29,010 bases of DNA from a bacterium. GTDB lineage: Bacteria; Fidelibacterota; Marinisomatia; Marinisomatales; UBA1611. Shown here piece after piece: positions 2,131 through 27,927 of the stretch (positions are counted from its first letter, which is position 1; every line of letters starts with the position of its first letter). The DNA lies in the NCBI GenBank assembly GCA_038127595.1, contig JAYPIC010000017.1:1-29010 (forward strand), written 5' to 3'. The position numbers and the translations under genes are program-made. The notes beneath the pieces are model-generated. The model searched no databases. It saw nothing but the letters and a program-made list of their open reading frames with translations, and was not told the origin of the DNA.

Positions 2131-3096
2131 TTAATTTCTGTAAAGTGATAATATCCATAAACAGTCTTCTTTTGTAATAGGCTTCCCAAGTCTTCCTGCT
2201 ATCTCTGCTTGCATTTTGTTTCTTTGCCCTAATAAAACGCATGCTGTAGGGTTATCAAATAATACTGCTCCGAGTAGTGACTGCATTATTGCATCCTCGC
2301 CAAAACTTGAGAATTTTGATTCAATTTTTTTTCTGTTTTTTTTCATTTTTTTAATGAATTCCATATCTTTGAATTCTTTTACGGATCTTCTAAAGTCCCC
2401 TTTTGGAAAATCGGGTATAGAGTTGTACTTACCTGTGAGTATTCCATGTTTAATAGGTGAAAAAAAACACACTCCTAGATTATTTTTTGTAATGTGATCT
2501 TTCAACCCTGAGGTCTCATATTCAATATCATAAACATTATATAATGGTTGGACTACATCTGGGTCCACAATATCAATATATTTCATTATTCTACTGGCTG
2601 ACCAGTCAGATAATCCAATGAATCGAGTTTTACCTTCTTCCTTAAAACGTATTAATTGCTCGATTGCTCCTTCTAGAAATTCATCTTTTTTACCAAAATT
2701 GCAGTGGTGTAAGTAAAACAAATCTACACAATCAGTTTTAAGGTTTATTAAAGATTGCTCCATTTTTGTTCTGATGTAATCCGAATTGTACCAGTATTTA
2801 TTTGGGCCTTTATCCCATCCGACTTTTGTCGCAAGAAAAATATTGTTCCTTGAAATTTCATTCCACATTGAGCCAATTATTTTCTCTGAATGTCCATCCC
2901 CGTACACATCTGCAGTGTCCCAATGATTTATACCTAATGAAAATGATTGTAATAATGCATCTTTTGAGTCTTGATCAGATTGATTAGACCAACCAACACT
3001 TGCACCATTGTCTGTGTTTTGTTTTCCGTGCGACCAAGCTCCAAGACTAATTACAGATATGGATTCTTCTGTTCTGCCTAATATAACTTTTTTCAT
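2131..3096 (-). CDS. Aldo/keto reductase
   Basis: LGRT...ISVISLGAW, GINHWDTADVYGDGHSE (catalytic D/Y), IFLATKVG, SLINLKTDCVDLFYLH and GKTRFIGLS. Confidence 0.93.
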   Translation of the reverse strand: MKKVILGRTEESISVISLGAWSHGKQNTDNGASVGWSNQSDQDSKDALLQSFSLGINHWDTADVYGDGHSEKIIGSMWNEISRNNIFLATKVGWDKGPNKYWYNSDYIRTKMEQSLINLKTDCVDLFYLHHCNFGKKDEFLEGAIEQLIRFKEEGKTRFIGLSDWSASRIMKYIDIVDPDVVQPLYNVYDIEYETSGLKDHITKNNLGVCFFSPIKHGILTGKYNSIPDFPKGDFRRSVKEFKDMEFIKKMKKNRKKIESKFSSFGEDAIMQSLLGAVLFDNPTACVLLGQRNKMQAEIAGRLGKPITKEDCLWILSLYRN

Positions 3097-3152
3097 TTAT
3101 TTTTATGAAATAGGGTAGATAGTTTCATATAGGTTATTAAAATTTATGCATT

Positions 3153-3488
3153 ATGAAGCGTGAATATTTAAAAATTTTGGATATTGGACATAGCGGGAAT
3201 TCTCCAGACAGAGCAATGATAATATTGGAAACGGCAGTTAGTCAGTGCTCGTTCGAAAATAAAACCAAAGTAATTAAAGTTATTACAGGGCATGGTTCCG
3301 GGAAGCTGCGTAATGCTGTAAGAGACTGGTGTAAAGATCAAGATGGTAGATTTAAAGATGTGATCTATGGTGAGGATTATGATATGTTTAATAAAGCTGC
3401 GGTTGATATGAGAAGTGATTGTGACCAGCCATACGACATTGATTTTGGTAGAAAAAATGCAGCTGTAACCTATATATGGTTAAGATGA
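3153..3488 (+). CDS. Stand-alone Smr (small MutS-related) domain protein
   Basis: LDIGH (LDLH-like), KVITGHGSGKLRNAVRDW and a C-terminal NAAVTYIWL strand. Confidence 0.75.
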   Translation: MKREYLKILDIGHSGNSPDRAMIILETAVSQCSFENKTKVIKVITGHGSGKLRNAVRDWCKDQDGRFKDVIYGEDYDMFNKAAVDMRSDCDQPYDIDFGRKNAAVTYIWLR

Positions 3489-3501
3489 TAGGAAGGTAAA
3501 A

Positions 3502-4077
3502 ATGGCAATAAAAAACAGTTTATTCATAATAATAGTCATTCAATTTTTTAATTGTGCTGGAACAAACTATAAAAAACTCAGCATTGAAAACCCCGCCAAA
3601 CTAGTAGCAGTTCAAGACTCTCTTCTTTTAGTTAGTGGCGACAATCAACGCATTAGAGATGCGTTGGTTACTGCAAATAATAGTGTTGCAAAAGGATATT
3701 TAAATGCCGGCGATTTAAAATCGGCTGCTCAATACTTTAATAAATCAACTTCTATAGATGGCGATAATAAGGACTCTAAATTCGGGCTTTTGATTGCCGA
3801 GGGGAGAATATTAATTAAAAAAGGCAATAAAAATGGAATATGGGATGCGATTGAAAAGTTTTCTAGAGCATCATCTCTATTCCCAAGAAATGGTGAGCCA
3901 TTTTACTGGATGGCTAAATCTTATACAAAGTTAGGCGATACAGAATTTGATTTAATTCTTGAATCATATGAAAAATCTTTAGCGCTAGATTTAGATGAAG
4001 GTTTACGATTAGAAGTTGAAAAAAACTATAAAATAGCTAAAAATCGAAAAAGTAAATTAGATTCTTTTTGGAAATAA
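3502..4077 (+). CDS. TPR-repeat protein, probable lipoprotein
   Basis: Basic N-terminus, hydrophobic stretch and FFNC-A lipobox-like Cys; TPR-like helices (AAQYFNKSTSIDGDN, AIEKFSRASSLFPRNGEPFYWMAKSY, YEKSLALD). SD-like GGAAGG upstream. Confidence 0.7.
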   Translation: MAIKNSLFIIIVIQFFNCAGTNYKKLSIENPAKLVAVQDSLLLVSGDNQRIRDALVTANNSVAKGYLNAGDLKSAAQYFNKSTSIDGDNKDSKFGLLIAEGRILIKKGNKNGIWDAIEKFSRASSLFPRNGEPFYWMAKSYTKLGDTEFDLILESYEKSLALDLDEGLRLEVEKNYKIAKNRKSKLDSFWK

Positions 4078-4129
4078 AATATCTTCACTCCTTAATTAAT
4101 GTGAGTATTTGTTAATTATTTATATTTTC

Positions 4130-4158
4130 TTGACACGTGATTGATTATTAAGTAAAAT
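4130..4158 (+). promoter_or_regulatory. sigma70-type promoter of the motor-like operon
   Basis: TTGACA (4130-4135), 17-nt spacer, TAAAAT (4153-4158), with AT-rich sequence upstream; GAGG RBS at 4204-4207 before ATG 4214. Confidence 0.8.
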
Positions 4159-4213
4159 TGCTCCCACTCTGCATTGAAAGATGCGAAGTGACTTAAAATA
4201 TCCGAGGTAAGAA

Positions 4214-5368
4214 ATGAGATCACAATTGAGCTTTATTAGGCGAGTTGTATGCTCGCTGTATGTTCTGTTGCTTTTTGGGCACTCAGTGTCATTTGCTGCA
4301 GAAAAATATGACTTAAAAGGTACTGTTAGAGGTATAGATGATAAGGTAACTGTTGAACTTGCTGGTACTAAAAAAGATGACAAAACCAATAGAGATGGTG
4401 AGTTTAAGTTAAACAATGTTTTGGAAGGCGAATATACTTTACAGGTCATTGCTGACAAAAAAGTAATTCATGAACAATCTATTAAAGTAGATAGTGACAA
4501 TGATAATTTAGAAATTAACGTTGGCTCTTCATCTGCTATAGTTGATAAGACGATCATTTCTGCTGCAGCCACAAGTTCTGTTAGTCAAGAAGTTTCTTCA
4601 GTACCTGTTCCCCAAACAGCAGAAGCTAGCGGAGGAGCATCTAATGATTTTATTTTAAATGAACTTAATTTTGAAATAAAAAAACTAACAGCAGAGTTCA
4701 AGCATCTAAGTAGAGAAATGGATGATCTTAAAGCTTTAAGTAAAATGTGGATCAATCCATTAACTATTTATTCGAAAGAAATAATTTTAAAAAATGGTAG
4801 TACAGTTTTTGGGAAAATTGTATATCAAGATGATAAATCCCTAAAAGTTGAGACCTTGGTTGGTTATTTAATAATAAAGAGAGATGAGGTAGTTCGAATT
4901 GTTGATAATGTTATAACCGAAGATCAGCAAGAATATGTTCCAGAGCAAATTAGAGAAAGTTATGCTCCACCTCCTATGCCCAAATTGACTGTTCCTAAGT
5001 ACACATCTTCAAGTGTCTCTAATAGAGATGCTGGTGAAAAGTTCTCAGCCAATTGCGTTTTAATGGGTAACATATCAGAAAAAAAGGATACACAAGGGAA
5101 TGTTGTTTTTAATGGTGAAATTAAAAACATAGGTGGTAGAAGAGCAGATTTTGTAAAAATGGATTTTGTATTTAGAAAAAATTGGAGCGGAGAAACCCGC
5201 ACATTGACAACATTCATACAAGGTTCTTACAATACTTTCGATAGTGGAATTGTTTCTGATGCTAGCCTGTTGCCAGGAGCTCTAGGGAAGTTCGAATTGT
5301 ATGTTCCTCAAGACTTTGGGTCTTTCATTGGTTATTCCTATGTAATTGATTGGGAAGAGTATCAGTAG
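4214..5368 (+). CDS. Exported multidomain protein: carboxypeptidase-regulatory-like beta-sandwich, coiled coil, small beta domain, C-terminal Ig/FxLYD-like domain
   Basis: Signal peptide ending SFA-AE; LKGTV...TNRDGEFKLNNVLEGEYTLQV (prealbumin-like fold); heptads LNELNFEIKKLTAEFKHLSREMDDLKAL; IILKNGSTVFGKIV; VVFNGEIKNIGG...LLPGALGKFEL. Confidence 0.6.
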   Translation: MRSQLSFIRRVVCSLYVLLLFGHSVSFAAEKYDLKGTVRGIDDKVTVELAGTKKDDKTNRDGEFKLNNVLEGEYTLQVIADKKVIHEQSIKVDSDNDNLEINVGSSSAIVDKTIISAAATSSVSQEVSSVPVPQTAEASGGASNDFILNELNFEIKKLTAEFKHLSREMDDLKALSKMWINPLTIYSKEIILKNGSTVFGKIVYQDDKSLKVETLVGYLIIKRDEVVRIVDNVITEDQQEYVPEQIRESYAPPPMPKLTVPKYTSSSVSNRDAGEKFSANCVLMGNISEKKDTQGNVVFNGEIKNIGGRRADFVKMDFVFRKNWSGETRTLTTFIQGSYNTFDSGIVSDASLLPGALGKFELYVPQDFGSFIGYSYVIDWEEYQ

Positions 5369-5378
5369 AAAATATTTT

Positions 5379-6260
5379 ATGATAATAAAATTACTATATA
5401 TCATTTCAGTATCTCTTGCTTCATATGTCTTCGGCCAAGATGTAGACGAGAATACTTTTCTACCTGATATGGGAGTAGTTATTCAGTCTGCGGATAAGTC
5501 TAGCAAACCAGAGCCTCCATTAGAAAAAAACCGTGTAGTAAAGTTGAACAATATGACTGATAAAAAAGAATCTAATTTTGTTTTTAAAGCTAAAGCATCT
5601 GATATGATTTCATCCATTGATAGAATTACTAGCCATGTTAGCAATCTAGAAAAAGATTATCAGTCCAAGATAGAACAGTTAGAAGCAGAAAATTCCAATT
5701 TAAGAAATCAAATTATCAGTTTAAACCATAGACTTAATTCAGAAATATTAAATGTTAGTTCAACCGAAGTTGAATCAGTCAAGCCAGAAATTGAAGTGTC
5801 TCTTCCACTAGAAATATCATCCGCTGACAACGGTATTGTTGAAGAAGTTGATCCTCAGACAGAAAATATTAGTCATAAAATAAAACTTAAAGATTTTGAT
5901 GAAGATCTCTATATAGAAGGTGTTATACATTATAATAATGAAAAGTTTGATGAGTGTATTGAAAATTTAGGAGTACTTCCTTTTGAAAAAGGTGAGCCTA
6001 GAAATGCTACAAAAGGATTATTTCTGCTTGCTGATTCTTATGAAAAAATTGGAAGGTACAAGCAGGCTTTGCTTTGTTTAGAAAAATTAACATCGTTTAA
6101 TGACCCTCTCTATTCTGAATTAGTTCTTTTTAAAAAAGGAATAATTTATAGAGATATTGGTATGAGGGATAAGGCTCAGAAAGTGTTTCAAACATTAGTT
6201 AACTTTTACCCTGATAGTGAGTATAAAGCATTTGCTGAACAGGAAATACAAAACATATAG
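5379..6260 (+). CDS. Exported coiled-coil + TPR protein, CpoB/YbgF-like architecture
   Basis: ATG 5379 preferred over TTG 5346 because it puts a signal peptide (MIIKLLYIISVSLASYVFG-Q) at the N-terminus. Coiled coil IEQLEAENSNLRNQIISL; three C-terminal TPRs ending AQKVFQTLVNFYPDSEYKAFAEQ. Confidence 0.7.
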   Translation: MIIKLLYIISVSLASYVFGQDVDENTFLPDMGVVIQSADKSSKPEPPLEKNRVVKLNNMTDKKESNFVFKAKASDMISSIDRITSHVSNLEKDYQSKIEQLEAENSNLRNQIISLNHRLNSEILNVSSTEVESVKPEIEVSLPLEISSADNGIVEEVDPQTENISHKIKLKDFDEDLYIEGVIHYNNEKFDECIENLGVLPFEKGEPRNATKGLFLLADSYEKIGRYKQALLCLEKLTSFNDPLYSELVLFKKGIIYRDIGMRDKAQKVFQTLVNFYPDSEYKAFAEQEIQNI

Positions 6261-6267
6261 CATTTAA

Positions 6268-7647
6268 ATGAATAGCAAAAAAAATATATTATTTATACTT
6301 ATATTTTTGTCAAGTATGATTTTTGCATCTGCTCGAGTTGCTTACACTCGCCCTGGTTTAATGATGAGAATTCCAACATCTAGCGTTGAAAAAGCTCCTT
6401 ATATTTTTAGGACTGGCTTTGGGGTAGAGCTCCACAATTTTGACCCCATCAACACAGCTAAAGGTGTTTACTTTGATATGGAATTTGCAAAAGGATTTTC
6501 TGCAGGATTTTCTGCTGTACAAGGGGGAGATACGACAGCTTTAAATTTGATTTCTGAATCTCAATATTCTCCACAAGTAGAATTTGGGTTTCATTTTCAA
6601 CAAAGAATTTTTGTTTATAATGATATTTCTCTTTCAGCAGGTTTGCAAGATATTGTCTTCCAAAACAACCAAGACGACGAACAAGTTTTAAGTTTAAATA
6701 CTGACCTTTTATCTTTTTTTCTAGTGCTTGCTAGTGAGAAAGATTTAGGTGATTATAAGATGAGCACTTTCATGGGTTTCGGTACTGGAGGCCTAGGCCC
6801 GATGGATAGTGTCAAAGTAATAAGTGATTCAGCACAAACGGCAAATGCGGGTGTCTTTGTTGGATTCTTATTGAAAACGCCCTACTTCGGTAGAACTGGT
6901 GGAATGGATATTGTGGGTGAATTCGATGGAACAGGTGTCAATGTGGGACTCCGCATCCCCCTTACCTCGGATTACCGCCTGAACCTTGGGTTCGCCCACA
7001 TAGAGCGTTTACCTAGCTGGAAGACTCGCTATTGGACTGGTCATCCAGCATTTACTGTGGGTTTTGATATGGCAGTACCAAGAGTAGGTGGCGCGTTGCG
7101 ATCCACTTCTAGTGGTCCATCTAATCAGCCTTTGCCGTTAGGTAATGCGTTTCGTTCTGAAAGCGGCTCTATCCCTGCTTATATGGATTCTACGATTGCG
7201 ATGGCTGATTTTACCGTATTGTCGCTAAGAGACTCTATGTCCATGATGAATAATGAAATGCGAAATTTGATGGTACAATTATCTGCTTTGGAGCAAGAAT
7301 CACAATTTCTTGTGGATTCATTGAAACAGCTAAAACTCAGTAAAAATGTCCAAGAAAAAAATATGAATGAGGCTATGAGACACTTATCAAGAAGCCTTAG
7401 ATATTTTTACGCAGGTGATTTTCGTGAGGCACTAAAGGAAGTTGATTTATCATTGGAACTGAAACCTGATTTAGCTTTAGCTTACGCAAGGCGTGGTTCT
7501 ATATATTATAAGTTAGGTGATGTTCAAAGAGCCACGATAAATTGGAATCTCGCACTTAGGTTAGATCCTGAGTATGATGATGTCAGGAATATTTTAAAGG
7601 CGCTTCATGAGAATCGTCTTAAAGAAGCTAATTTGTTTGAGGAGTAA
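6268..7647 (+). CDS. Exported protein: putative outer-membrane beta-barrel (YjbH-like) N-domain, coiled coil, C-terminal TPRs
   Basis: Signal peptide; amphipathic Gly/aromatic strands (VEFGFHFQQ, GVFVGFLL, IVGEFDGTGVNVGLRIPLTSDYRLNLGF, FTVGFDM); coiled coil MNNEMRNLMVQLSALEQESQFLVDSLKQL; clear TPRs LALAYARRGSIYYKLGDVQRATINWNLALRLDPE. Confidence 0.6.
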   Translation: MNSKKNILFILIFLSSMIFASARVAYTRPGLMMRIPTSSVEKAPYIFRTGFGVELHNFDPINTAKGVYFDMEFAKGFSAGFSAVQGGDTTALNLISESQYSPQVEFGFHFQQRIFVYNDISLSAGLQDIVFQNNQDDEQVLSLNTDLLSFFLVLASEKDLGDYKMSTFMGFGTGGLGPMDSVKVISDSAQTANAGVFVGFLLKTPYFGRTGGMDIVGEFDGTGVNVGLRIPLTSDYRLNLGFAHIERLPSWKTRYWTGHPAFTVGFDMAVPRVGGALRSTSSGPSNQPLPLGNAFRSESGSIPAYMDSTIAMADFTVLSLRDSMSMMNNEMRNLMVQLSALEQESQFLVDSLKQLKLSKNVQEKNMNEAMRHLSRSLRYFYAGDFREALKEVDLSLELKPDLALAYARRGSIYYKLGDVQRATINWNLALRLDPEYDDVRNILKALHENRLKEANLFEE

Positions 7648-7650
7648 AAC

Positions 7651-8439
7651 ATGGATATTGCTTTAATTATAGGAGTTATATTTGGTTTTGTTTGTATGAT
7701 AGGTAGTATTGCTTATGCTCTTTTTGTTGAGGGTTCAGCAGGGGGATTTGGTAACTTTCTATCTGCGCCAAGTTTTGGAATTGTATTTGGAGGTATGATT
7801 GCGTCTATATTTGTGGCATTCCCAATGCCTCATGTTGTCGCTCTAGGAAAAGCTATCGGTGCGGTGCTAAAGCCTGCAGATGATAAAATGGGGCCACTTG
7901 TAGATGAAGCTGTTGAAGTAGCTGAAGTTGGTAGAAAAGGTGCAGCTGACCTTGAAAAATCTGTTGATGGTATAAAAAATTACTTTTTTAAGGATGGTGT
8001 TCAGATGGTTGTAGATGGCTATTCTTTAGACGAAATAACTGAAATCATGGAAACTAGAATTGAATATAGAGAAAAAAGAGAAAACGTTCAGAAATCAATG
8101 TTAAAGTCAATGGGTGATTTAGCTCCAGCATGGGGTATGGTAGGTACTCTTATTGGTCTTGTACTTATGTTAGCTGGTTTTGGGGGTGAAGGAGGAGCAG
8201 ACAACTTAGGTGGTGGTATGGCTGCAGCTCTAATTACCACTCTTTATGGTGCTGTTTTTGCAAATTTATTTTTTCTACCAATGGCAGATAAGATGGGCAA
8301 TAAAACTACTCAAACATCGATGTCAGCAGCGTTATTAGTAGAAGCTGCTAGGTTAATCCATCAGAAAAAGCATCCTTTAATTGTTCGTGAAAAATTAAAT
8401 TCATTCATACCTCCTGGAGAGTGGAAAACAGAGGGCTAA
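7651..8439 (+). CDS. motA: Flagellar-type stator A subunit (MotA/PomA family)
   Basis: Four TM segments; MD...IG N-terminus, F.S.PSFGIVFGG, RKG...LE, FFKDGVQMVVDG, APAWGMVGTLIGLVLML, MAAALITTLYGAVFANLFFLP and HPLIVREKLNSF. Confidence 0.93.
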   Translation: MDIALIIGVIFGFVCMIGSIAYALFVEGSAGGFGNFLSAPSFGIVFGGMIASIFVAFPMPHVVALGKAIGAVLKPADDKMGPLVDEAVEVAEVGRKGAADLEKSVDGIKNYFFKDGVQMVVDGYSLDEITEIMETRIEYREKRENVQKSMLKSMGDLAPAWGMVGTLIGLVLMLAGFGGEGGADNLGGGMAAALITTLYGAVFANLFFLPMADKMGNKTTQTSMSAALLVEAARLIHQKKHPLIVREKLNSFIPPGEWKTEG

Positions 8440-8448
8440 GGTTTTCTT

Positions 8449-9330
8449 ATGGCTGGCGCAGAATTTAAAAACGGATACAAAAAAGGTTTTGAAGATGGGG
8501 CTAACTCTGTTGAAGAGGGGCTTCCTGGATGGTTCGGAACTTTTGCAGACATGATGACATTATTATTTGCATTTTTTGTATTACTTGCTGCTATATCCAC
8601 TATGGATCCTGTAAAACTTCAAGAAATGGCAAATTCTGAGGGCAAGTCACTAGGGAGCAAAATCAAAGCCAGCGGAAAAGCTGAAGAAGAAGGTGAGTTT
8701 GAACCAATTAAAAATTTGGCTGAAATGAAAAAAGAGATGGAAGAAACTATCGAGGAGATGAAGAAAGAGAATCCAAAAGGTGACCCTCCAATCGATATTC
8801 AAACTAGCTCAAAAGGTCTAATAGTAAATATCAAAGGCGATTATGCTTTTCCTATTGGTAAAGCCTCTATGAAAGAAGAGTTAAAAGGACTTTTAGATGA
8901 AGAAATTATACCAAAAATTCAATTAAGCCCTTTTCAAGTAGAGGTAGCCGGTCATTCTGATTCAGATAAAATGCCAAAAAAATGGAGAAAGAACTTTGCT
9001 ACTAACTGGGAACTTTCTGCTGCAAGAGGTGCTAGTGTGGTTCGTTATATGATTGACAAGGGAGTACCCGCACCACGATTATTGGCTGCAGGTTATGGTC
9101 CTTGGGCTCCTCATGGACTTGATAGTGTAAAAAAGCAAAACCCAATGTGGAATCCTTTAACATTAACTTGGAAAGACCCTGTTAAGACTGCAGACGGGAA
9201 AGAAATGCCAACTGTTTTAAGTCTAAATAAAAACGAAAAAATGAAATCTAAAAACAGAAGAATTCAAATTACTTTTTTAAATCCGCCACATCATGGTAAG
9301 GGGCGGTCAGCAACAAGCTATGAAGATTAA
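8449..9330 (+). CDS. motB: Flagellar-type stator B subunit (MotB/PomB family) with OmpA-like peptidoglycan-binding domain
   Basis: WFGTFADMMTLLFAFFVLL (conserved Asp34), plug helix DPVKLQEMANS, VEVAGHSD, NWELSAARG, GYG and NRRIQI. Confidence 0.93.
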   Translation: MAGAEFKNGYKKGFEDGANSVEEGLPGWFGTFADMMTLLFAFFVLLAAISTMDPVKLQEMANSEGKSLGSKIKASGKAEEEGEFEPIKNLAEMKKEMEETIEEMKKENPKGDPPIDIQTSSKGLIVNIKGDYAFPIGKASMKEELKGLLDEEIIPKIQLSPFQVEVAGHSDSDKMPKKWRKNFATNWELSAARGASVVRYMIDKGVPAPRLLAAGYGPWAPHGLDSVKKQNPMWNPLTLTWKDPVKTADGKEMPTVLSLNKNEKMKSKNRRIQITFLNPPHHGKGRSATSYED

Positions 9331-9351
9331 ATACATACCGAGGAGTATTTC

Positions 9352-11205
9352 ATGATAAAAATAGTTTCAAATATTAAAAAAAGATTAGCGGTTTTCTTAC
9401 TGTCTGCTCTTTTAATAGGCCAAGGGTCTGGCTACCTAGCACAAAAGCTTATGGTAGAAAATAATATAAGAGAAAGAATTAAAGACGCTCTTTCTAAGAT
9501 TATTGACAGTAATAAATATGTTATTAACGTTGATATTGATCTAGATATTAGTGATGAAGTGGAAGAGCAAATCACAGTTTTGTCAGAAAAAAATTCAAAC
9601 CAGTCTGCTAATGATATGCCTGAAGAAAAGAACACTGTAGAAGAATCTTTATCAAGTATTCAGCAATCAATAGAATCAGAAGAAGAATCTAGCCAGTCTG
9701 GTTACTCTGTTGGGTTACCTATTCCTGGGTTTGAAATGGATTTTACGAATTCAAATAAAGCTTCAAAAAAAGCCGAAGAACCAAAGCCTCCAGTAATGTC
9801 AGTTGAAACAAAGAAACCAATTGAAGTTACTGATAAGAGTAGTAGTTCTAATGAACCTCGGGTTGACAAAATTTTGTCTAGGACAAGACCATCTAGAGCT
9901 GAAGTAAAAAAGATGTATATTAGTTTAATTTTACAAGAGGGAGCTGCTCCAGAGCTTATCGAAAATATCAGACAATTAACTATGGCCGCTGCAAAATTTG
10001 ATAGAAACCGTGGTGATAAGCTAACTATCATGACTGCTAGTTTTAGAGAAAGAAGAGATCAGCGCTCAGCTGAACAGATCATGCTGAAAAACATAGCAGA
10101 AAAAATTGAACTTCTTGAGCAAAAAAGAGAAATTGAAGAAAATACCCAAGATGCTACCTGGAAAGATGAATTAACTAGATATAGAGAAGAAGAGGCGGCT
10201 AGAAGAGAGGATGATAGAAAGTTTTTTGAGGGACAAATTTCACAATTAGAACAGCAAGCCAAAGATCGCGCTTATGCTCAAGAGAAAAAGGACATGCTTT
10301 TAAGAGACTCTTTAAAGCTAAAAAAATTAAATGATGAAATTGTTGCTTTGAAATCAATGCTTAAGAGCGCCGAAAAACGTGATAGTTTAAAAACCGTTAG
10401 CAAGCAAGAACGTATAGATTCTTTAAGGTATGTTAGCCTTAGTACTGAGCTTGATGAGTTAGCAAAATCACTTCAAACTGCAGTTGTTTCAAAATCTAAA
10501 GATGAAGAAGTGAAGGCAAAGCGTAAAATTCAAGCTGAAATGGCTGAGAGAGAAAAACAGAAAGAAAAAAGAGAACAAGAAATTGCTGACAAGATTCGTG
10601 AACTTGATAGCGTTCAAGAAGAGCTAGATAAGTTGCATCAAGATATGGAAAAAGAAAGTGGAAATACTTTCATCATCTTAATTGTTCTTGGTGCTTTGGT
10701 ATTTATTTTGATAGCAGCTTTAATATTTGTTTTGTTAAGAAATAATAGCAGGCAAGCACCTGTTCCTCCTTGGATGATGCCTCCACCACCGCGTAGACCA
10801 AGAAGGAAAAGAAGAGAGGCACCAAATAAAGAGAAAGAGTCTAAACAAAATTCAAAAACTGAAGAACCAGCATCAAAGTCTCAGTCTGAGGAGCCTGTAG
10901 TTACGCCACCTGCACCTCAGCCTGAGCAGTCCGCTGATCAAGAAGTAACAGGCGCTAATAAAGAAGAATCGCAGCCTGAAAGTTCCTTGCCACCATCGAG
11001 TGATAATGATCCAGATGTGGTCAGGAGTGAAATAAATGATATACGCAAATCCGTTGTCTCTATGAGTGTAGGTCAACCGGATAGGACTACCACAATAGTA
11101 AAAGAATGGTTAGAACAACCAGAACCTACACCGCCAGCTGAACCTGAGCAAGAGGCACCTGCTGCTGATGCAGATAGCGATGGTTCTGAAGAGAAAGAAA
11201 AGTAA
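9352..11205 (+). CDS. Atypical FliF-like M-ring protein (RBM3/beta-collar only, long coiled coil, TM helix, FliG-binding tail)
   Basis: VENNIRERIKDALSKIIDSNKYVINVDIDLD, LPIPG, VDKILSRT...VKKMYISLIL and IENIRQLTMAAAKFDRNRGDKLTIMTASF match the FliF C-terminal RBM3 pattern. TM at aa ~440-462. C-terminal VVSMSVGQPDRTTTIVKEWL matches the FliF P-x7-W-L tail. Directly upstream of fliG; GAGGAG RBS. Confidence 0.78.
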   Translation: MIKIVSNIKKRLAVFLLSALLIGQGSGYLAQKLMVENNIRERIKDALSKIIDSNKYVINVDIDLDISDEVEEQITVLSEKNSNQSANDMPEEKNTVEESLSSIQQSIESEEESSQSGYSVGLPIPGFEMDFTNSNKASKKAEEPKPPVMSVETKKPIEVTDKSSSSNEPRVDKILSRTRPSRAEVKKMYISLILQEGAAPELIENIRQLTMAAAKFDRNRGDKLTIMTASFRERRDQRSAEQIMLKNIAEKIELLEQKREIEENTQDATWKDELTRYREEEAARREDDRKFFEGQISQLEQQAKDRAYAQEKKDMLLRDSLKLKKLNDEIVALKSMLKSAEKRDSLKTVSKQERIDSLRYVSLSTELDELAKSLQTAVVSKSKDEEVKAKRKIQAEMAEREKQKEKREQEIADKIRELDSVQEELDKLHQDMEKESGNTFIILIVLGALVFILIAALIFVLLRNNSRQAPVPPWMMPPPPRRPRRKRREAPNKEKESKQNSKTEEPASKSQSEEPVVTPPAPQPEQSADQEVTGANKEESQPESSLPPSSDNDPDVVRSEINDIRKSVVSMSVGQPDRTTTIVKEWLEQPEPTPPAEPEQEAPAADADSDGSEEKEK

Positions 11206-11222
11206 GGGTAGGAGGTTTAGAT

Positions 11223-12167
11223 ATGATAACAGATTATAATCGCCTATCGGGGCTTCATAAAGTTGCAATTCTTTTTTCAGTGCTAGGTGAAAGCCTTGCT
11301 ATGTCGCTTATTAAGGGTTTATCTCGTACTGAGGTAAGAAAAATAAGAGCTACTATTCGAGAAATGGATAGCGTTTCGTTTACGCTGAAAAGACGAATAA
11401 TGGAAGAATTCTATTTTGGTTTTTTAAGTGAACAATTTTCTGAAGAAGGTGGAGATGATGAGGATGAAGGACCCATCAAGCCATTTGAGTTTTTAACTGA
11501 AATGACTGATGAGCAGCTCGTTGCACTTCTTGCAAATGAAGATGTCCCAGTAATTGCTATAGCATTAGCTCAGCTAGACTCATCCAAAAGAATGTCCATA
11601 CTAGAACGTATGAAACCTGAAGAAAAAGGGAAAGTATTAATTGAACTTGGTAGTTTGCAGGATGTTCCTTTAGAAGCGATAGTAGAGGTTGCGGGTAAAT
11701 TAAAAGAAAAAGCATCTTACTTACCCAAGCCAGTTGAGTTTTCTAGGGGCGGAGCCAAAGAGATAGCTGACTTAATTGGAGAGATGAGTGCAGATGAAGC
11801 TGAAAGATATATGCAAACTCTTCAAAATGAAAATCCTGAACTATATAAAGATGTTAAAATGTTAGTTCTAACTTTTGAGGATATTTTGGCTAATTTCCCA
11901 GATGGAATTCTAAGAGATCTTTGTAATAGTGTTGAGCTTGATGCATTAGCAATGGCCTTGAAGGGAATTGAACAAGAAACTGTCGACAGAGTTATTGGTA
12001 ATTTACCTCAGAAAAAACAAGCTATGTTTGAGCCCGTTGAAGGTCCAAAACCCAAGAGGGAGGTTGATGATGCTAGAAAAATCATTGTCACTGCGGCTAA
12101 AGCAATGGAAAAAGAAGGTGCTTTTAATTTAGCAGATATGATGGGTGGTGGAGAAATGATTGAATAA
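11223..12167 (+). CDS. fliG: FliG-like rotor protein
   Basis: LSGLHKVAILFSVLGE (FliG-N), PFEFL, GG linker (SRGGAKEIADLI), ENPEL...TFEDI, LAMALKG, GP...EVDDARKIIV and EGAF; AGGAGG RBS. Confidence 0.9.
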   Translation: MITDYNRLSGLHKVAILFSVLGESLAMSLIKGLSRTEVRKIRATIREMDSVSFTLKRRIMEEFYFGFLSEQFSEEGGDDEDEGPIKPFEFLTEMTDEQLVALLANEDVPVIAIALAQLDSSKRMSILERMKPEEKGKVLIELGSLQDVPLEAIVEVAGKLKEKASYLPKPVEFSRGGAKEIADLIGEMSADEAERYMQTLQNENPELYKDVKMLVLTFEDILANFPDGILRDLCNSVELDALAMALKGIEQETVDRVIGNLPQKKQAMFEPVEGPKPKREVDDARKIIVTAAKAMEKEGAFNLADMMGGGEMIE

Positions 12168-12193
12168 TCATCTATCTAATTTTCTTTAATTTT

Positions 12194-12223
12194 AAAAAAG
12201 CCCCAAATTTTTGGGGCTTTTTT
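12194..12223. terminator. Bidirectional intrinsic terminator between fliG and the OPT gene
   Basis: AAAAAAGCCCCAAATTTTTGGGGCTTTTTT: GC stem with A/T tracts on both sides, between convergent genes. Confidence 0.9.
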
Positions 12224-12228
12224 GTTAA

Positions 12229-14130
12229 CTATTTTAATAATCTTGGTTTTGATTGAATGTAGATCCAATATACCGTAATTATTGAAATGATAAGTGTTAA
12301 TCCACTGATTATGTCAGAATCAATGCCCAAATCAAGATTTTTTATTCCAGCTCCAGCAATAAATGCTAGTAAGATTCCCATCAATGATTCTCCTGCGATT
12401 AAACCGGATGATAAAAGAATTCCTCTTTGAAGTATATTGTCTGGTTCTCCTTTTGTTTTATTCTCTGATAGAATGAAATGAGCCATCACTCCACCTATAA
12501 GAATTGGTGTAGAAAGACCAAAAGGCAGATAAATACCAACAGCAACAGGCATAAGGTGAAGTCTAAAATAGCTACCTTTTGATTCGAGAATAGAGTCAAT
12601 TATAAGAATTATAATTCCGAGTGCACATCCAATTAAAACCATGTTCCAAGGAAGAATACCGTCTCCAAAAAAGCCTTTTGCAAGGCTTGCAAATAAGCCT
12701 GCTTGAGGTGCTGCAAGTTCTCTACCGCCAATCCCACCTGGAGTGTTTTCATGAAGCAATTGCATGATTGGAGCCATTACTAGAGAAGCAACTGCAACGC
12801 CAGCGATTTGCATTGTTTGTTGTCTATAAGGAGTTGCTCCTACAATTTGACCAGTTTTAAGGTCATTACAAACATCTCCTGAAGTACATGCAGCACAGCA
12901 TACTATTGCAGCTACACCAAGCGTAGCTATCATTCCTTCTGTACCAGAAAACCCAAAGATATAGAGCATGCCACCAGTAAATAGCACAGCAGTAATTGTC
13001 ATGCCCGAAACCGGAGAATTTGAGTTTCCAACTAGTCCTACAATATAGGATGCAACTGCAGTAAAAAAGAATGCCATTACAATCATGATTATCGTTGTTA
13101 TTGCAGCAATTGCTGCATTATTTGTAATGTAAAAATAAACGCCACCAACCAAGACAATAGCAATTACTGAAAATATATTAATTGCCTTTGCTGATATATT
13201 TTGTTCATTTAAAGGAGTGTTACTTTGATCTGAATTTATTTGGCTTTTCCGCAATACTTTGATAGCATCAATCAATCCTTTTCTCACTTTAAAGATTGAG
13301 GCCATACCGCCAATTACCATGGCTCCAACGCCTATGTATCTTATTTTTGTAGACCATAGAGTCCATGCCCCATCGGCAGGGTGTGATATATAGTCTAATC
13401 CTCCACCTAACAAAGGTATGCCGATTAGCCACCCTATGGACCCACCAATAAAAATAAGCACAGCCACATTTAGTCGAACGATGAATCCCACAGCAAGTAA
13501 AGCAGGAGATATATCGCTACCAAAAAAGAATATTCTACTGCCACTTAGCATTGCTGTTTCGAGATTACCCTTAAGAATTCCGGCGAATGAAATCAACCCT
13601 TTAAATGCGCCGCCAACTAGGGCTCCTTTAATAATTGATGTTGCACTATCCGATTCAGCATCATCTTGTCCAGCTTCAAGTACAGATGCACATGCTAGCC
13701 CTTCTGGGTATTGCAGATTGTCTTCATTTTTTACAATGAAAACCTGTCTCATTGGGATCATAAACAATATACCAAGTAGTCCTCCTGTAAAAGCAATTAC
13801 AGTTGTAAGGTACATATCAAATGACTGCCAGACGCCGATTAATATTAATGCTGGCATTGTGAAAATTATTCCTGCTGCTAGAGATTCACCTGCAGAAGCA
13901 GCTGTCTGAATTTGATTCGCTTCTAAAATTGAGTTCGAAGTTCCACTCATTCTGGAAAAATATTTTAAAGCTAACATACCAAGAACAGCTGCAGGTATAG
14001 AAGCTGAAACGGTCATTCCCGCTTTAAGTCCGAGGTAAACATTTGCTGACCCCATTATTACAGATAACAATAAACCTAAAACAATTACTCTTAAATTTAA
14101 TTCTGGCAATAATTTTGAATCATTTTGCAT
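12229..14130 (-). CDS. OPT family oligopeptide/metal-chelate transporter
   Basis: ELNLRVIVLG, ANVYLGLKAGMTVSASIPAAV, QTAASAGESLAAG, YPEGLACA, SPVSG, DLKTGQIVGATP, LAAPQA and SGLIAGESLMG; many TM helices. Confidence 0.93.
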   Translation of the reverse strand: MQNDSKLLPELNLRVIVLGLLLSVIMGSANVYLGLKAGMTVSASIPAAVLGMLALKYFSRMSGTSNSILEANQIQTAASAGESLAAGIIFTMPALILIGVWQSFDMYLTTVIAFTGGLLGILFMIPMRQVFIVKNEDNLQYPEGLACASVLEAGQDDAESDSATSIIKGALVGGAFKGLISFAGILKGNLETAMLSGSRIFFFGSDISPALLAVGFIVRLNVAVLIFIGGSIGWLIGIPLLGGGLDYISHPADGAWTLWSTKIRYIGVGAMVIGGMASIFKVRKGLIDAIKVLRKSQINSDQSNTPLNEQNISAKAINIFSVIAIVLVGGVYFYITNNAAIAAITTIIMIVMAFFFTAVASYIVGLVGNSNSPVSGMTITAVLFTGGMLYIFGFSGTEGMIATLGVAAIVCCAACTSGDVCNDLKTGQIVGATPYRQQTMQIAGVAVASLVMAPIMQLLHENTPGGIGGRELAAPQAGLFASLAKGFFGDGILPWNMVLIGCALGIIILIIDSILESKGSYFRLHLMPVAVGIYLPFGLSTPILIGGVMAHFILSENKTKGEPDNILQRGILLSSGLIAGESLMGILLAFIAGAGIKNLDLGIDSDIISGLTLIISIITVYWIYIQSKPRLLK

Positions 14131-23989: not shown

Positions 23990-24043
23990 TTCTGATCATT
24001 TAATAGAATGATAACAAAAAATAAAAAAGAGGGTATAAAAACC

Positions 24044-27000: not shown

Positions 27001-27904
27001 AAAAGCTACTGATACATATGGTAACGGTTTAACTTCTGTAGATTTTCTACAAAGAGACATAGAAGTTAGATGGGTTGGTGAATTTGTTGATGAACCAATT
27101 ACAACAGACGCAGGTGTAGTTTATTATACAGCTGATACCAACCTCCCTCATTCATATGCATGGATCAGTGGTTCTAGATTAAGCCCATTAGCTGATCATC
27201 CAGATCCTGCTAACCCTGGTGACGGTTCTTCTTTCAGGGTAGCAGTTCCGTTTGAAGTTTGGGACATGGAAGATCCAAATGGTCCTAGACAAATTGATAT
27301 TGATATTTATGATAGAATACAGTCATTTAACTCAGGAGATACAGTGTATGTGTTTAATCCGTTTGATCGTATGTATACACACTTTATGATGGCTGATTAT
27401 CAAGAAGATGGTCTATATGAGGATGGACCAACTGGAACACCGACTGATTTCTTGACATGGAATATCGTATGGTGGGAAGCACAGTTTAACCAAGGTGATG
27501 TAGTTCGTTTTAATTACGCGAACCCAATTCAGCCTGGCGTAGATGAATTTGTCTTCAGCACAATGGCTAGTGAAACAGTCGCATCAAATGATGTATCCGA
27601 AGTTAGTGTTTATCCAAACCCATACTATGGAACTCATGAGCTAGAAAGTAGTCGTGCAGAAAAATATGTTTCTTTTAACCATTTACCGGTTGAGGCAAAG
27701 ATAGACATTTACTCTTTAGGTGGTGTTTTTGTTAGAAGTATAGACAAAAATGATGCATCACAATTTGCTCAGTGGGATCTTAAGAACCAGTATGGTTATC
27801 CAGTTGCAAGTGGTATGTATGTAGCACGGATCAAATCTGGTGGTGAAGAGAAAATCTTAAAAATTGCACTTGTTCAAGAAACACAAGTGTTGAAATACTA
27901 TTAA
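24044..27904 (+). CDS. Large secreted/surface protein with T9SS type-A-like C-terminal sorting domain
   Basis: ATG 24044 preferred (GAGGG SD, signal peptide MKIKNIKLIAAASIILVSSLFS). C-terminus VSVYPNPY...FNHLP...IYSLGGVFVR...WDLKNQYGYPVASGMYVARI...KILKIALV. Fn3-like segment (GYVVY...YHFAVTAY) and DxDGDG motifs. Confidence 0.8.
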   Translation: MKIKNIKLIAAASIILVSSLFSKELASTSVSSKATQRVLNGENQSPGISVLNINNIAYWIGKDGAYTTAGSPNGTMADYPIFTGGFIYSDGMLWGAKVKGDGQGDEVRVGGSTYYHGLKAGRIITDAEGNVLGSDDPVNNHVWRVRKDWATADLTVDAANYYAVGTGDVSAAQISVVKNQYEYDWYNWPAAWGAPYHDVNGDGSYDPAVDVPGYPGADQTMWTIANDVPLIVDAAGDSIGYSNTAPSLYGADPIGIELQITLWGYAFGASDPLGNNIFKQAKMKYMGLPGTPDGAMLDSLYFTQWSDPDLGTYTDDYVGCDIDLSFGYVYNGNRLDGVFNGIFNLPVPAGGYDFLQGPPDNMDIDGDGDTEEYLGMTSFTYFGAGSAISDPDLSSYSGSLQFFNLMEGFLPRPEYPQQIPFTDPSTGLETKYALSGDPTSGSGWIDGVQLPPGDRRMVMASGPFRLNLGEEADVVFGIAGGMGLDNVSSVSVAKFHDLYGQYAYDQEFNLPSAPSSPTVHGIEMDGSIGLDWGSDENSVSATEETVSAGFEFEGYVVYQLPSASSPLSEAVKVATYDKVNLIQNILDPSIDPITGLVVDAAKQTGTDAGVQRYFSTDYDEVRGRPMSNGITYHFAVTAYSYLADNEGSPFKTLESGETRIAVTPRSLNPGETVHSEMSSAIDITHNGTANATINVSVINPYELKDESYKVTFDTQEYYRDLDGTWKKVVAGRAAGKASDCTGSTVAAAAVASATVGTIDLVLTFTMNCGSNWVDGIDFTFPADMGTINSWEVIGPGNLCSYGTGSGQNCNNLDGTLDGNTLLFGTVNTGGGFGAFESSNTFKINYTPGSGGYPYDVGFTVYDDAYDGTEVNAVGTATVAELGYETKTEYHWNLSTAGGTVLLEDQTFIGGADLYGGASVDNNSSLHYNSAAAVTVDGFHLNVDGGYDSPVDYFESVITPDAANAALYGESSYDLGSYIRYGWALTSKATDTYGNGLTSVDFLQRDIEVRWVGEFVDEPITTDAGVVYYTADTNLPHSYAWISGSRLSPLADHPDPANPGDGSSFRVAVPFEVWDMEDPNGPRQIDIDIYDRIQSFNSGDTVYVFNPFDRMYTHFMMADYQEDGLYEDGPTGTPTDFLTWNIVWWEAQFNQGDVVRFNYANPIQPGVDEFVFSTMASETVASNDVSEVSVYPNPYYGTHELESSRAEKYVSFNHLPVEAKIDIYSLGGVFVRSIDKNDASQFAQWDLKNQYGYPVASGMYVARIKSGGEEKILKIALVQETQVLKYY

Positions 27905-27927
27905 TCACCATATAAACGGAGATAAAA

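Follow-up and report, generated by a model that had tools for sequence, protein, structure and literature searches.

A cassette of seven genes resembling the core of a flagellar motor was analysed in a window of 29,010 nucleotides (contig JAYPIC010000017.1, assembly GCA_038127595.1) from a genome of the Marinimicrobia. The cassette probably (at about 0.6) encodes an ion-driven rotor-stator machine of the flagellar-motor type that would stand alone, without a switch or a flagellum, and be coupled to outer-membrane partners; part of this picture we infer. The Marinimicrobia, or SAR406, are an abundant group of ocean bacteria. A motor core joined to outer-membrane proteins without a flagellum points to an undescribed ion-driven envelope machine, and no published description of this cassette was found.

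Layout of the cassette

Seven open reading frames are packed on the + strand between 4214 and 12167. They encode three exported proteins, MotA, MotB, a cut-down FliF and FliG, which confirmed an earlier note on this DNA that had described stator and rotor genes in one tight cluster. The reading frames of ORF1 and ORF2 overlap, and the remaining intergenic gaps are 3–21 nt. The features are as follows.

3502–4077, + strand: candidate eighth member, a TPR protein of 191 aa with a signal of the lipoprotein type (Cys18); TPR_2 match and sequence reading
4130–4158, + strand: promoter-like site, sigma-70-like, TTGACA-17-TAAAAT, 11 of 12 matches
4214–5368, + strand: ORF1 (p1), exported multi-domain protein; Pfam CarboxypepD_reg-like match below cut-off, AF2 model
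5346–6260, + strand: ORF2 (p2), exported coiled-coil and TPR protein; Pfam TPR_2 and TPR_6 matches
6268–7647, + strand: ORF3 (p3), outer-membrane-type beta-barrel, helix and TPR protein; Pfam TPR, AF2, Foldseek
7651–8439, + strand: MotA-type stator A subunit of PomA/MotP-like size; Pfam MotA_ExbB, 95.5 bits
8449–9330, + strand: MotB-type stator B subunit with plug, TM helix and OmpA-like peptidoglycan-binding domain; MotB_plug 55.2 bits, OmpA 39.2 bits
9352–11205, + strand: FliF-like ring protein (p6); YscJ_FliF_C 39.5 bits against a cut-off of 23.8
11223–12167, + strand: FliG paralogue, here FliG2, with N, M and C domains; FliG_N, FliG_M and FliG_C all over Pfam cut-offs
12194–12223, no strand assigned: GC-rich hairpin between an A-run and a T-run; direct reading of the sequence

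The earlier note had placed a sigma-70 promoter and a terminator at the two ends. The promoter-like site is present, but such sites were not above chance in the region (35 seen against 29.7 ± 5.5 in shuffles), and RNA-library contigs run across it (X1 record 2, X7 record 25). The hairpin and T-run can be read directly between the convergent FliG2 and OPT-transporter genes but were absent from the terminator-scan list. Synteny stops at this hairpin; the genes downstream are shared only with one near-identical locus (L005). The description of the neighbours as housekeeping genes needs qualification upstream, where the TPR lipoprotein gene recurs. A homologue of it precedes ORF1 in the same orientation in 36 of the 52 loci whose upstream sequence extends 1500 nt or more from ORF1, and lies within 400 nt in 22 of these. 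It may be a further cassette member.

Conservation and RNA coverage

Wherever the contigs reach, all 75 related Marinimicrobia loci showed the same gene order and strand. ORF1, ORF3, MotA, MotB, the FliF-like gene and FliG2 were found in one order and strand in 58 of them; the remaining 17 end at contig edges, and every gene with room was present. Synteny was strict over FliG2 identities of 41–100%, with all ORFs intact. The proposed cassette of seven genes thus kept its order on comparison across genomes, but 19 related loci with ORF1 and ORF3 have no ORF2, and there ORF3 follows ORF1 directly. The conserved core is therefore six genes.

The dN/dS values were 0.017–0.094 for these six genes and 0.20–0.23 for ORF2, the least conserved. 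The cassette genes are under purifying selection. Signs of decay, which the earlier note had named as evidence against its reading, were looked for and not found in these values or in the synteny.

Metatranscriptome contigs from four runs (4 studies) cover 23–29 of 30 cassette bins and bridge 5 of 6 gene junctions, ORF1/ORF2 being the exception; this coverage consists of contigs only, which are no proof of transcription, of its strand or of a single transcript. Depth was zero in both flanks of the cassette in two of the four runs.

Accessory envelope proteins

The N-termini of ORF1, ORF2 and ORF3 are hydrophobic and signal-like. The AF2 model of ORF1 (mean pLDDT 78) showed a transthyretin/CarboxypepD_reg-like sandwich, a linker, a long helix, an SH3-like barrel and a C-terminal Ig-like sandwich, for which Foldseek gave generic domain matches only. 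Residues 150–384 of ORF1 are strongly conserved in 58 sequences, and dN/dS for the gene was 0.05–0.07. Its atlas relatives are from Fidelibacterota only, and ORF1 seems specific to this phylum. The start of ORF2 is uncertain, lying at TTG 5346 or at an in-frame ATG 11 codons further on. ORF2 matched TPR families of the BamD/CpoB/YbgF type weakly, far under their cut-offs.

The AF2 model of ORF3 (mean pLDDT 77.5) consists of a 12-stranded beta-barrel (about 45–271), a disordered linker, a 75-residue helix (307–382) and a C-terminal TPR domain (385–458). Foldseek matched it to 12-stranded barrels (FapF, NanC and a designed 12-strand barrel; TMt 0.5–0.65) and to TPR proteins. ORF3 has 40 invariant columns across 63 sequences and a dN/dS of 0.05–0.07.

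Stator proteins

All ten PDB matches of MotA were flagellar MotA/PomA (best 8.8e-37). The best NCBIfam scores were 176 bits for MotP and 153 bits for PomA, both under the equivalog cut-offs. Arg95/Lys96 and Glu102 of MotA, encoded at 7933–7956, are conserved together with two prolines in at least 95% of 70 sequences; dN/dS for the gene was 0.024. The MotA tree came from an unrooted quick search. In MotB, Asp34 lies in the TM helix (codon 8548–8550) and is conserved, as is the peptidoglycan-binding motif (69–70 sequences for the MotA and MotB residues together). Conservation across 69 sequences extends to the motifs FADMMTLL and NWELSAAR, and dN/dS was 0.03. A second MotAB pair, without FliG, is found elsewhere in the source genome.

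Rotor proteins

The FliF-like protein has a first TM helix (9385–9441), an RBM3-type domain (about 9490–10044) with GLPIPGF and RGD...F motifs, a periplasmic coiled coil, a second TM helix (10669–10737), a Pro-rich cytoplasmic linker and a conserved C-terminal helix (11038–11118). The Pfam search of this ORF gave YscJ_FliF_C only, without the YscJ_FliF N-domain, and the NCBIfam search gave no family match. The family profile matched solved FliF chains over the RBM3 region (8z4d, 3e-4; 12dr, 4e-4; 6scn, 1.4e-3), and the C-terminal helix aligned weakly with the FliF C-terminal tail. P123, P125, G126, R207, R220, G221, D222 and F231 are invariant. Among relatives the coiled coil varies in length, and the whole protein is 389–661 aa.

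FliG2 is the only FliG_C locus in the source genome. Its best PDB match was FliG 1lkv (9e-19), and its TIGR00207 score was 104.5 bits against a cut-off of 226.7. It shares 21–26% identity with canonical FliG from 12 flagellated genomes in the phylum, and its dN/dS was 0.02–0.04. At 11538–11549 EDVP stands in place of EHPQ, so that the FliM-docking motif is lost. In the shortened stator-contact segment (12006–12059), four residues are deleted from the helix, and the acidic pair of a canonical torque helix is missing. The linker between the N and M domains is also shorter.

The tail of the FliF-like protein and the N-domain of FliG2 were co-folded with a score of 0.45 against 0.02 for the best control. 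Three runs agreed in at least 88% of contacts, with a partner pLDDT of at least 61. Of 157 solved complexes, 116 reach this mark, as do 2 of 215 mismatches; a pass here may reflect memorised structures because FliF-FliG complexes are already solved. The model weakly suggests that the tail pairs with the FliG2 N-domain.

Relationship of FliG2 to FliG and to FliF-FliG fusion proteins

The FliG tree was built from 124 rows by a quick search. A branch with SH-aLRT 100 sets the canonical FliGs (61 rows, 12 of them from this phylum) apart from 29 FliG2 and 34 FliF-FliG-fusion rows; the tree is unrooted, so derivation from a flagellum and sisterhood to it look the same. FliG2 is a deep paralogue of canonical FliG and clusters with FliF-FliG fusion proteins that occur naturally in other bacteria.

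FliG_M and FliG_C were found in 11 of 11 fusion-type proteins scanned, and YscJ_FliF_C (E ≤ 0.001) in 4 of 11. The fusion gene is flanked by an ORF3-TPR-like protein and then MotA and MotB in 20 of 22 long metagenome loci; one further locus, which ends after MotA, has the TPR-like protein and MotA. In these 21 of 22 loci, the TPR protein is 34–46% identical to the helix/TPR part of ORF3.

Independence from flagella

The source genome (2.0 Mb, 95.84% complete) was searched with profiles of eight flagellar and chemotaxis families. FHIPEP/FlhA, FliP, Flg_bb_rod, Flagellin_N, FliMN_C, YscJ_FliF, Bac_export_2/FlhB and CheW were all unmatched, while each was positive in control genomes. The claim that other flagellar genes are missing, made from the window, thus extends for these families to the whole genome, and no flagellar set relying on these rotor and stator copies was found there.

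Among 201 genomes of the phylum, a FliG2-type match (at least 215 bits) was found in 132 and FlhA over cut-off in 48: both in 32, FliG2 without FlhA in 100, FlhA without FliG2 in 16, and neither in 53. The search found no FliG2 in family f3 (13 genomes of about 1 Mb each) and none in 28 of the 33 genomes of family f24, so the cassette function is not essential. In six flagellated relatives the full cassette occupies a second locus, apart from the canonical FliG locus; flagellated relatives thus have it beside a separate flagellar locus that looks complete. The one flagellar locus examined (L089, genome G004) has its own FliG (21% identical), MotA (37%) and MotB (30%). The cassette does not depend on flagellar genes, and its description as a self-contained stator-plus-rotor module outside any flagellum was borne out.

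Proposed machine and alternative explanations

In the proposed machine, MotA and MotB would form an ion-conducting stator fixed to peptidoglycan. The ion may be Na+, as suggested by PomA and MotP, the named families nearest to these proteins. The FliF-like protein would form a membrane ring through its single RBM3 domain, and its cytoplasmic C-terminal helix would recruit the FliG2 N-domain to build a FliG2 ring beneath the membrane. The FliG2 C-domain retains a contact segment that is conserved though shortened; by pushing on it, the stator would turn the ring or at least strain it. No switch would be expected because FliM/FliN and the EHPQR docking motif are missing. Work might reach the outer membrane through the periplasmic coiled coil of the FliF-like protein, periplasmic ORF1 and ORF2, and the barrel-helix-TPR protein ORF3. 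By analogy with Tol-Pal, TonB or GldLM, the most likely guess for the output is the energising of an envelope or outer-membrane process. Swimming is unlikely.

Some observations count against this reading. With the deletion and the loss of the acidic pair, the MotA-FliG interface may function in another way or fail altogether. Flagellar FliG rings are normally stabilised by FliM/FliN, which the source genome lacks. The greatly varying coiled coil argues against a fixed envelope-spanning shaft, and ORF2 is dispensable in some lineages. The same altered contact helix and the failure to find FliM/FliN in the genome would suit a non-rotary device, in which the FliF-like protein and FliG2 are a static or transiently strained inner-membrane scaffold and MotAB is a force generator or gated ion channel. 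MotAB would then act as TolQR does on TolA, tethering or remodelling peptidoglycan and outer membrane without continuous rotation. The genome has only three MotA_ExbB loci, none an obvious TolQR, and the partners resemble Tol-Pal-type scaffolds in their coiled coil and TPR, their CpoB/YbgF/BamD-type matches and the OmpA-like peptidoglycan binder. However, the CpoB/BamD matches are far under cut-offs, and the three FliG domains, the MotA charges and the RBM3 ring-building motifs, all under strong selection, are what a rotor-stator interface needs. The non-rotary device is considered unlikely.

It is very unlikely that the cassette is an accessory of a true flagellum, a second rotor/stator set that serves it in flagellated Marinimicrobia and moonlights where the flagellum was lost. 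FlhA does accompany FliG2 in 32 of 132 genomes, and second FliG copies are known in flagellated bacteria, such as Borrelia FliG1/FliG2. However, FlhA is unmatched in the other 100, the cassette lies apart from the canonical FliG locus in six flagellated genomes and from the flagellar locus in G004, FliG2 lacks the FliM-docking motif, the cassette has its own ring protein and outer-membrane partners, and selection in the flagellum-less genome is as strong as expected for a working gene. Still less credit is given to a type IX secretion motor replacing GldLM/PorLM. The translocon domain SprA_N occurs in 197 of 201 phylum genomes, including the source genome, GldM_1st in 0 of 201, and a weak T9SS sorting-domain match lies within the window; yet the GldM_1st search lacked any positive control, which leaves its zero count with little weight, and SprA is kept in 13 of 13 f3 and 31 of 33 f24 genomes, against 0 of 13 and 5 of 33 for FliG2. 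A decaying, functionless remnant of a lost flagellum would explain why every other flagellar gene tested is missing and why FliG2 was not found in some families, but it is scarcely credible and was rejected: six genes have dN/dS of 0.02–0.09, ORFs and synteny are intact, relatives keep separate canonical flagellar genes alongside, the accessory genes are known from no flagellum, and RNA-library contigs cover the cassette.

Comparison with known systems

ExbBD-TonB, TolQR-TolA-Pal-CpoB and GldLM/PorLM are non-flagellar 5:2 motors in which an inner-membrane, ion-driven stator works on outer-membrane partners. They use ExbD/TolR-type or GldM-type B subunits and, to our knowledge, have no FliG or FliF ring. 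The cassette resembles them in the predicted pairing of such a stator with outer-membrane partners, and in its periplasmic TPR and coiled-coil proteins, ORF2 giving weak CpoB/YbgF-type TPR matches. It differs in its MotB-type B subunit with plug and OmpA domain and in its A subunit, for which every PDB match is a flagellar stator.

With the flagellar motor core (FliF MS-ring, FliG ring and MotA5B2/PomA5B2 stator) the cassette shares homologous MotA, MotB with plug, Asp and OmpA-like domain, a three-domain FliG, the RBM3 ring-building domain and a C-terminal FliG-binding-like helix. Unlike that core, it stands in a genome without export gate, rod, hook, filament, FliM/FliN or FliF RBM1-2. Its FliG lacks EHPQ and has a contact helix four residues shorter, its proteins fall under the NCBI FliG, MotA and PomA equivalog cut-offs, and its partners are an outer-membrane barrel-TPR protein and periplasmic proteins known from no flagellum.

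Flagellar genes are also retained in non-flagellated bacteria, for example Lysobacter enzymogenes (PMC9927559). Rotor or flagellar genes are present there without a filament, so that another function is conceivable, but such cases are leftovers of canonical flagellar sets. The present cassette, in contrast, is a distinct paralogous set with its own partners, occurring beside true flagellar genes in relatives.

No publication was found on FliF(RBM3)-TM-FliG fusion proteins beside MotAB and a TPR protein. Their FliG domains are the sister group of FliG2, and their MotA, MotB and TPR proteins are homologous to those of the cassette at 26–46% identity. LPGLP in the fusions corresponds to GLPIPGF here, and RGD...F, PFxFL and TFxD are matched. 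Unlike the fusion systems, the cassette has its rotor split over two genes, FliF-like and FliG2, and its barrel and TPR form a single protein, ORF3. The gene order is accessory genes, MotAB, FliF-like and FliG2 in the cassette, and barrel, TPR, fusion and MotAB in the fusion loci.

Organization of the cassette

The earlier note had proposed a stator and rotor operon of seven genes, and this was confirmed by the ORF listing and Pfam. All seven genes were on the forward strand, from 4214 to 12167; the first two overlapped, and the remaining gaps were 3–21 nt.

4214–5368, +, ORF1, exported protein; weak CarboxypepD_reg-like match under the Pfam cut-off
5346–6260, +, ORF2, exported protein; TPR
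6268–7647, +, ORF3, exported protein; TPR
7651–8439, +, ORF4, MotA; MotA_ExbB, 95.5 bits
8449–9330, +, ORF5, MotB; MotB_plug and OmpA
9352–11205, +, ORF6, FliF-like protein; YscJ_FliF_C (PF08345) only, 39.5 bits against a cut-off of 23.8
11223–12167, +, ORF7, FliG (FliG2 below); FliG_N 60.6, FliG_M 43.3 and FliG_C 78.9 bits, all above cut-offs

The sigma70 promoter proposed at 4130–4158 matched the consensus well, but such matches were not enriched in the region. The hairpin of the terminator proposed at 12194–12223 was plain in the sequence. Both are kept as weak details. The ORF1 model contains a sandwich and a helix, then an SH3-like barrel and an Ig-like sandwich; in that of ORF3, a 12-stranded barrel is joined by a linker to a 75-residue helix and a TPR domain. 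Fold searches with the two proteins gave generic domain matches only.

According to Pfam, the cassette is preceded by genes for an aldo-keto reductase, a methyltransferase, an Smr protein and a small TPR protein, and is followed, on the opposite strand, by OPT transporter and purine genes. The Smr-domain gene (3153–3488, same strand, two genes upstream) recurred in 31 of the 52 related loci with room for it and had no evident link to the cassette. The region 21002–28956 on the forward strand encoded a 995-aa TonB-dependent-receptor-like protein (CarboxypepD_reg, Plug and barrel), a 1298-aa protein with a weak match to a type IX secretion system (T9SS) sorting domain (20.3 bits, under the cut-off), and a 342-aa protein matching no family.

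Search for flagellar genes in the host genome

FliG and FliF are textbook parts of the flagellum only. The genome containing the window (2.0 Mb, 133 contigs, 95.84% complete) was searched for the other flagellar parts. The export gate proteins FlhA, FlhB and FliP (PF00771, PF01312 and PF00813) were not found in it, while the controls gave matches in 4 genomes each. The rod proteins (PF00460) and flagellin (PF00669) of the axial structure, the FliM/N C-domain (FliMN_C; FliM's own PF02154 lay outside the search) and CheW were likewise not found in this genome, and their controls gave matches. The FliF N-domain (RBM1–RBM2, YscJ_FliF, PF01514) was present neither in ORF6 nor in the rest of the genome, again with matches in the controls. 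The claimed absence of flagellar genes therefore held for all these families across the genome. FliG_C occurred once, at the window locus.

MotA_ExbB was found at three loci: the cassette, an ExbB-ExbD-ExbD-TonB set away from the cassette (C1, L002), and a second MotA/MotB pair. No TolQR-like locus was seen among the three. The second pair (MotA of 292 aa; MotB of 241 aa with plug and OmpA) was on contig C8 (L004:644–2250, minus strand) with no FliG nearby, and adjoined a rhomboid protease and a Big_9/cadherin-like protein.

Conservation, selection and expression

Conservation was investigated by tblastn of the seven cassette proteins against 75 related loci, in which FliG identity ranged from 41 to 100%. 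The genes for ORF1, ORF3, MotA, MotB, the FliF-like protein and FliG had one order and strand in 58 loci. The other 17 were cut by contig ends, and every gene with space was present. For these six genes, the expected synteny across genomes was borne out as far as the contigs reach. ORF2 was weakly conserved and was missing from 19 loci, where ORF3 directly followed ORF1. Downstream synteny ended at the FliG stop codon, and the TPR lipoprotein gene of the upstream flank recurred in 36 of 52 loci with room. At one locus (L011:2947–4979), ORF3 was shortened to 348 aa and separated from MotA by about 1 kb, possibly through disruption, insertion or an assembly fault. Three contigs titled SAR86, Lentisphaeria and Thaumarchaeota (L010, L076 and L078) carried Marinimicrobia-type cassette genes and are probably mis-binned; the FliG2 of L076 nested within the Marinimicrobia clade of the FliG tree.

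dN/dS of the cassette genes, computed against two close relatives with dS of 0.8–2.0, which is near saturation
MotA: 0.024–0.025
MotB: 0.031–0.034
FliG: 0.017–0.038
ORF3: 0.054–0.068
ORF1: 0.049–0.066
FliF-like: 0.078–0.094
ORF2: 0.20–0.23

Metatranscriptome contigs from 4 runs of 4 studies covered 23–29 of 30 bins across 3000–12400, where bins without contig cover are evidence of nothing. Contigs from the RNA libraries spanned the ORF2/3, ORF3/MotA, MotA/MotB, MotB/FliF-like and FliF-like/FliG junctions, and two of the four runs had zero depth in both flanks. Because contigs cannot prove transcription, strand or a single transcript, these data are a hint of expression.

Distribution in the phylum and relation to true flagella

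The 201 genomes investigated were an even sample of the phylum. FliG_C gave matches in 152 genomes and FlhA in 50, of which 48 were over the cut-off. The cassette-FliG profile split two classes cleanly, with orthologues at 215–527 bits and canonical (flagellar) FliG at no more than 128 bits.

Genomes by cassette-type FliG and FlhA (n = 201)
Cassette-type FliG present: FlhA over cut-off, 32; no FlhA, 100
Cassette-type FliG absent: FlhA over cut-off, 16; no FlhA, 53

Losses of the cassette-type FliG clustered in two families: it was carried by 0 of 13 genomes in f3 (genomes of about 1 Mb) and 5 of 33 in f24. A 346-aa FliG-like frame of an FlhA-positive genome (G030:C8:10152–11150) shared its contig with FlhA, at a distance of 24 kb; its 215 bits fell between the classes (295–527 and at most 128).

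The whole cassette was at its own separate locus in six flagellated genomes. The flagellar locus of one of the six, genome G004 (L089), encoded its own FliG, MotA and MotB, which were 21%, 37% and 30% identical to those of the cassette. The canonical FliG of 12 flagellated genomes showed 21–26% identity to the cassette FliG. Given the separate loci, the own flagellar FliG and MotAB in G004, the low FliG identity and the 100 genomes without FlhA, the cassette is, as judged from sequence, a deep paralogue that coexists with the flagellum and has outlived it. The alternative that it is a flagellar remnant was rejected: it is contradicted by the strict synteny, the low dN/dS and the coexistence with separate canonical flagellar genes. 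The relaxed dN/dS that the earlier note had named as a sign of flagellar decay was not seen (0.017–0.094 in six genes and 0.20–0.23 in ORF2).

A further MotA class, 42–47% identical to the flagellar MotA of the phylum, occurred where FlhA was missing and, in flagellated genomes, as an additional copy (G047:C6:27734–28510, G012:C31:3524–4309, G067:C25:136905–137690 and others). It was not seen in the genome containing the window at E ≤ 1e-60.

Properties of the stator, ring protein and FliG2

All 10 PDB matches of ORF4 were flagellar MotA or PomA. At least 95% of 70 sequences share MotA residues R95/K96, E102 and both prolines, and MotB has retained its plug, Asp34 and peptidoglycan-binding motif. 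The best NCBIfam matches of ORF4 were the Na+-type MotP (176 bits, cut-off 394) and PomA (153 bits, cut-off 341), both under the equivalog cut-offs. These matches, together with Thr residues aligning with PomA, hint at Na+ coupling. Flagellar, cassette and fusion-cassette MotAs formed separate groups in the MotA tree, which is silent on which two are closer because it has no outgroup.

In the FliF-like protein, TM1 is followed by an RBM3 domain (the ring-building domain of FliF). A periplasmic coiled coil, very variable in length, leads to TM2, after which a proline-rich linker connects to a conserved C-terminal helix. The RBM3 domain contains invariant GLPIPGF and RGD...F motifs. The family profile matched solved FliF chains across RBM3 (3e-4 to 1.4e-3), and its C-terminal helix aligned weakly with the FliF C-terminal tail. 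Co-folding of this tail with the FliG2 N-domain gave 0.45, compared with 0.02 for the best control; 116 of 157 solved complexes score this high, as do 2 of 215 mismatches. Three runs shared at least 88% of contacts, with a partner pLDDT of at least 61. The model weakly supports binding of the tail to the FliG2 N-domain, and the score may reflect memorized structures, since FliF–FliG complexes are already solved.

FliG2 has FliG_N, FliG_M and FliG_C, and its best PDB matches were FliG chains. Its score against the NCBI equivalog TIGR00207 was 104.5 bits, under the cut-off of 226.7. The EHPQ of the FliM-docking EHPQR motif is EDVP in FliG2 and ED(P/V)P across its family, whereas the canonical FliGs of the phylum retain EHPQ. 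The linker between the N and M domains is shorter than in canonical FliG. The contact helix, PQKKQAMFEP-VEG, is 4 residues shorter than the canonical SERAAEMLQDELEYLG of the phylum. The charged torque helix of E. coli FliG has the pattern R281/D288/D289, according to the available portion of PMC12505986. In the alignment to it, FliG2 has Lys at the Arg and Pro plus a gap at the acidic pair, with Glu residues nearby, and the shortened segment is strongly conserved. Among the matches listed, the homologues of FliG2 were near-identical relatives, annotated by pipelines as 'flagellar motor switch protein FliG'. Because of such labels, motility of SAR406 may be wrongly suggested.

FliF–FliG fusion cassettes

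An exhaustive search with the cassette FliG gave 3849 proteins at E ≤ 0.001. Among the best 150 of these and one separately found long protein, 37 had 480–777 residues with the FliG part C-terminal. That long protein, a fusion of 611 aa, came from a search for longer homologues and is attributed by NCBI to an Elusimicrobia bacterium. All 11 fusion-type proteins analyzed by Pfam contained FliG_M and FliG_C; 4 had an N-terminal YscJ_FliF_C at E ≤ 0.001, 2 of them over the cut-off. The N-terminal part of several fusion proteins matched the RBM3 region of ORF6.

A FliG tree (124 rows, quick tree search, LG+C20, unrooted) was built with the most query-like canonical rows. The 61 canonical FliGs were split from the rest by a branch with an SH-aLRT of 100. 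The non-canonical rows formed a Marinimicrobia type (29 rows, support 97) and a fusion type (34 rows, support 97). In this unrooted tree, FliG2 was the sister group of the FliG domains of the fusions and did not lie within them.

A 5-row fusion alignment was used to find 22 long metagenome loci; Pfam was run on the fusion gene of one of them. In 20 of the 22, a TPR protein preceded the fusion gene, which was followed by MotA (29–32% identity to the cassette protein) and then MotB (25–30%). One further locus, with its contig cut after MotA, had the TPR protein and MotA. The TPR protein shared 34–46% identity with the helix/TPR part of ORF3. A 356-aa barrel-like protein upstream of the Pfam-analyzed fusion gene had no detectable similarity to the ORF3 barrel (BLASTP E > 20). 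The rotor of the fusion cassettes is one FliF(RBM3)-TM-FliG polypeptide, whereas that of the Marinimicrobia cassette is encoded by two genes 17 nt apart.

Proposed mechanism and comparison with known systems

With its parts, independence from the flagellum, selection and paralogy established, the cassette may work as follows. A peptidoglycan-anchored MotAB stator would drive a FliG2 ring without a switch. This ring would be held beneath an RBM3 ring formed by the FliF-like protein, and the work would be relayed via the periplasmic coiled-coil and TPR proteins to the outer-membrane barrel of ORF3. If it works in this way, the cassette would be a further kind of ion-driven envelope machine.

The cassette could instead be the motor of the T9SS, whose translocon, SprA, is widespread in the phylum: SprA_N was found in 197 of 201 genomes, including the genome of the window (G000:C83:3015–4343, L174). 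GldM_1st of the GldLM/PorLM motor was found in 0 of 201 genomes, but no control genome gave a match either. SprA persists in the families mostly without FliG2 (f3 and f24), and a T9SS motor is thus disfavoured.

No description of such a cassette was found in the literature, searched mainly in non-subscription journals. FliG-linked non-flagellar stators are not treated in the available portion of a MotAB phylogeny paper (PMC12505986), and PMC11652737 describes the sole cultured representative of the phylum, Fidelibacter multiformis IA91, as non-motile.

The results present a FliF/FliG/MotAB module that is conserved, under selection and apparently expressed; it occurs without a flagellum, yet coexists with a true flagellum in relatives. 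Its host group ranks among the most abundant uncultured ones in the dark ocean. With a single ring domain, a single FliG and no switch, the cassette would, if it works as proposed, be a small natural minimal rotor suited to structural and single-molecule studies. An old question also becomes testable with it, namely whether the flagellar rotor-stator pair existed as a module earlier than, or separately from, the flagellum. It is unlikely, at about one chance in seven, that the split cassettes of Marinimicrobia and the fused ones represent an ancient free-standing rotary machine, a sister and not a derivative of the flagellar motor core, in which a bare inner-membrane ring still drives an outer-membrane process. 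If so, they would be a living relative of the rotor-stator module to which the export apparatus and axial structure were added later.

To our knowledge, none of the non-flagellar 5:2 motors known so far has a FliF/FliG rotor. Tol-Pal and ExbBD-TonB use an ExbD/TolR-type B subunit and a TolA/TonB partner, whereas the cassette, with no ExbD or TonB domain, has the MotB-type ORF5.
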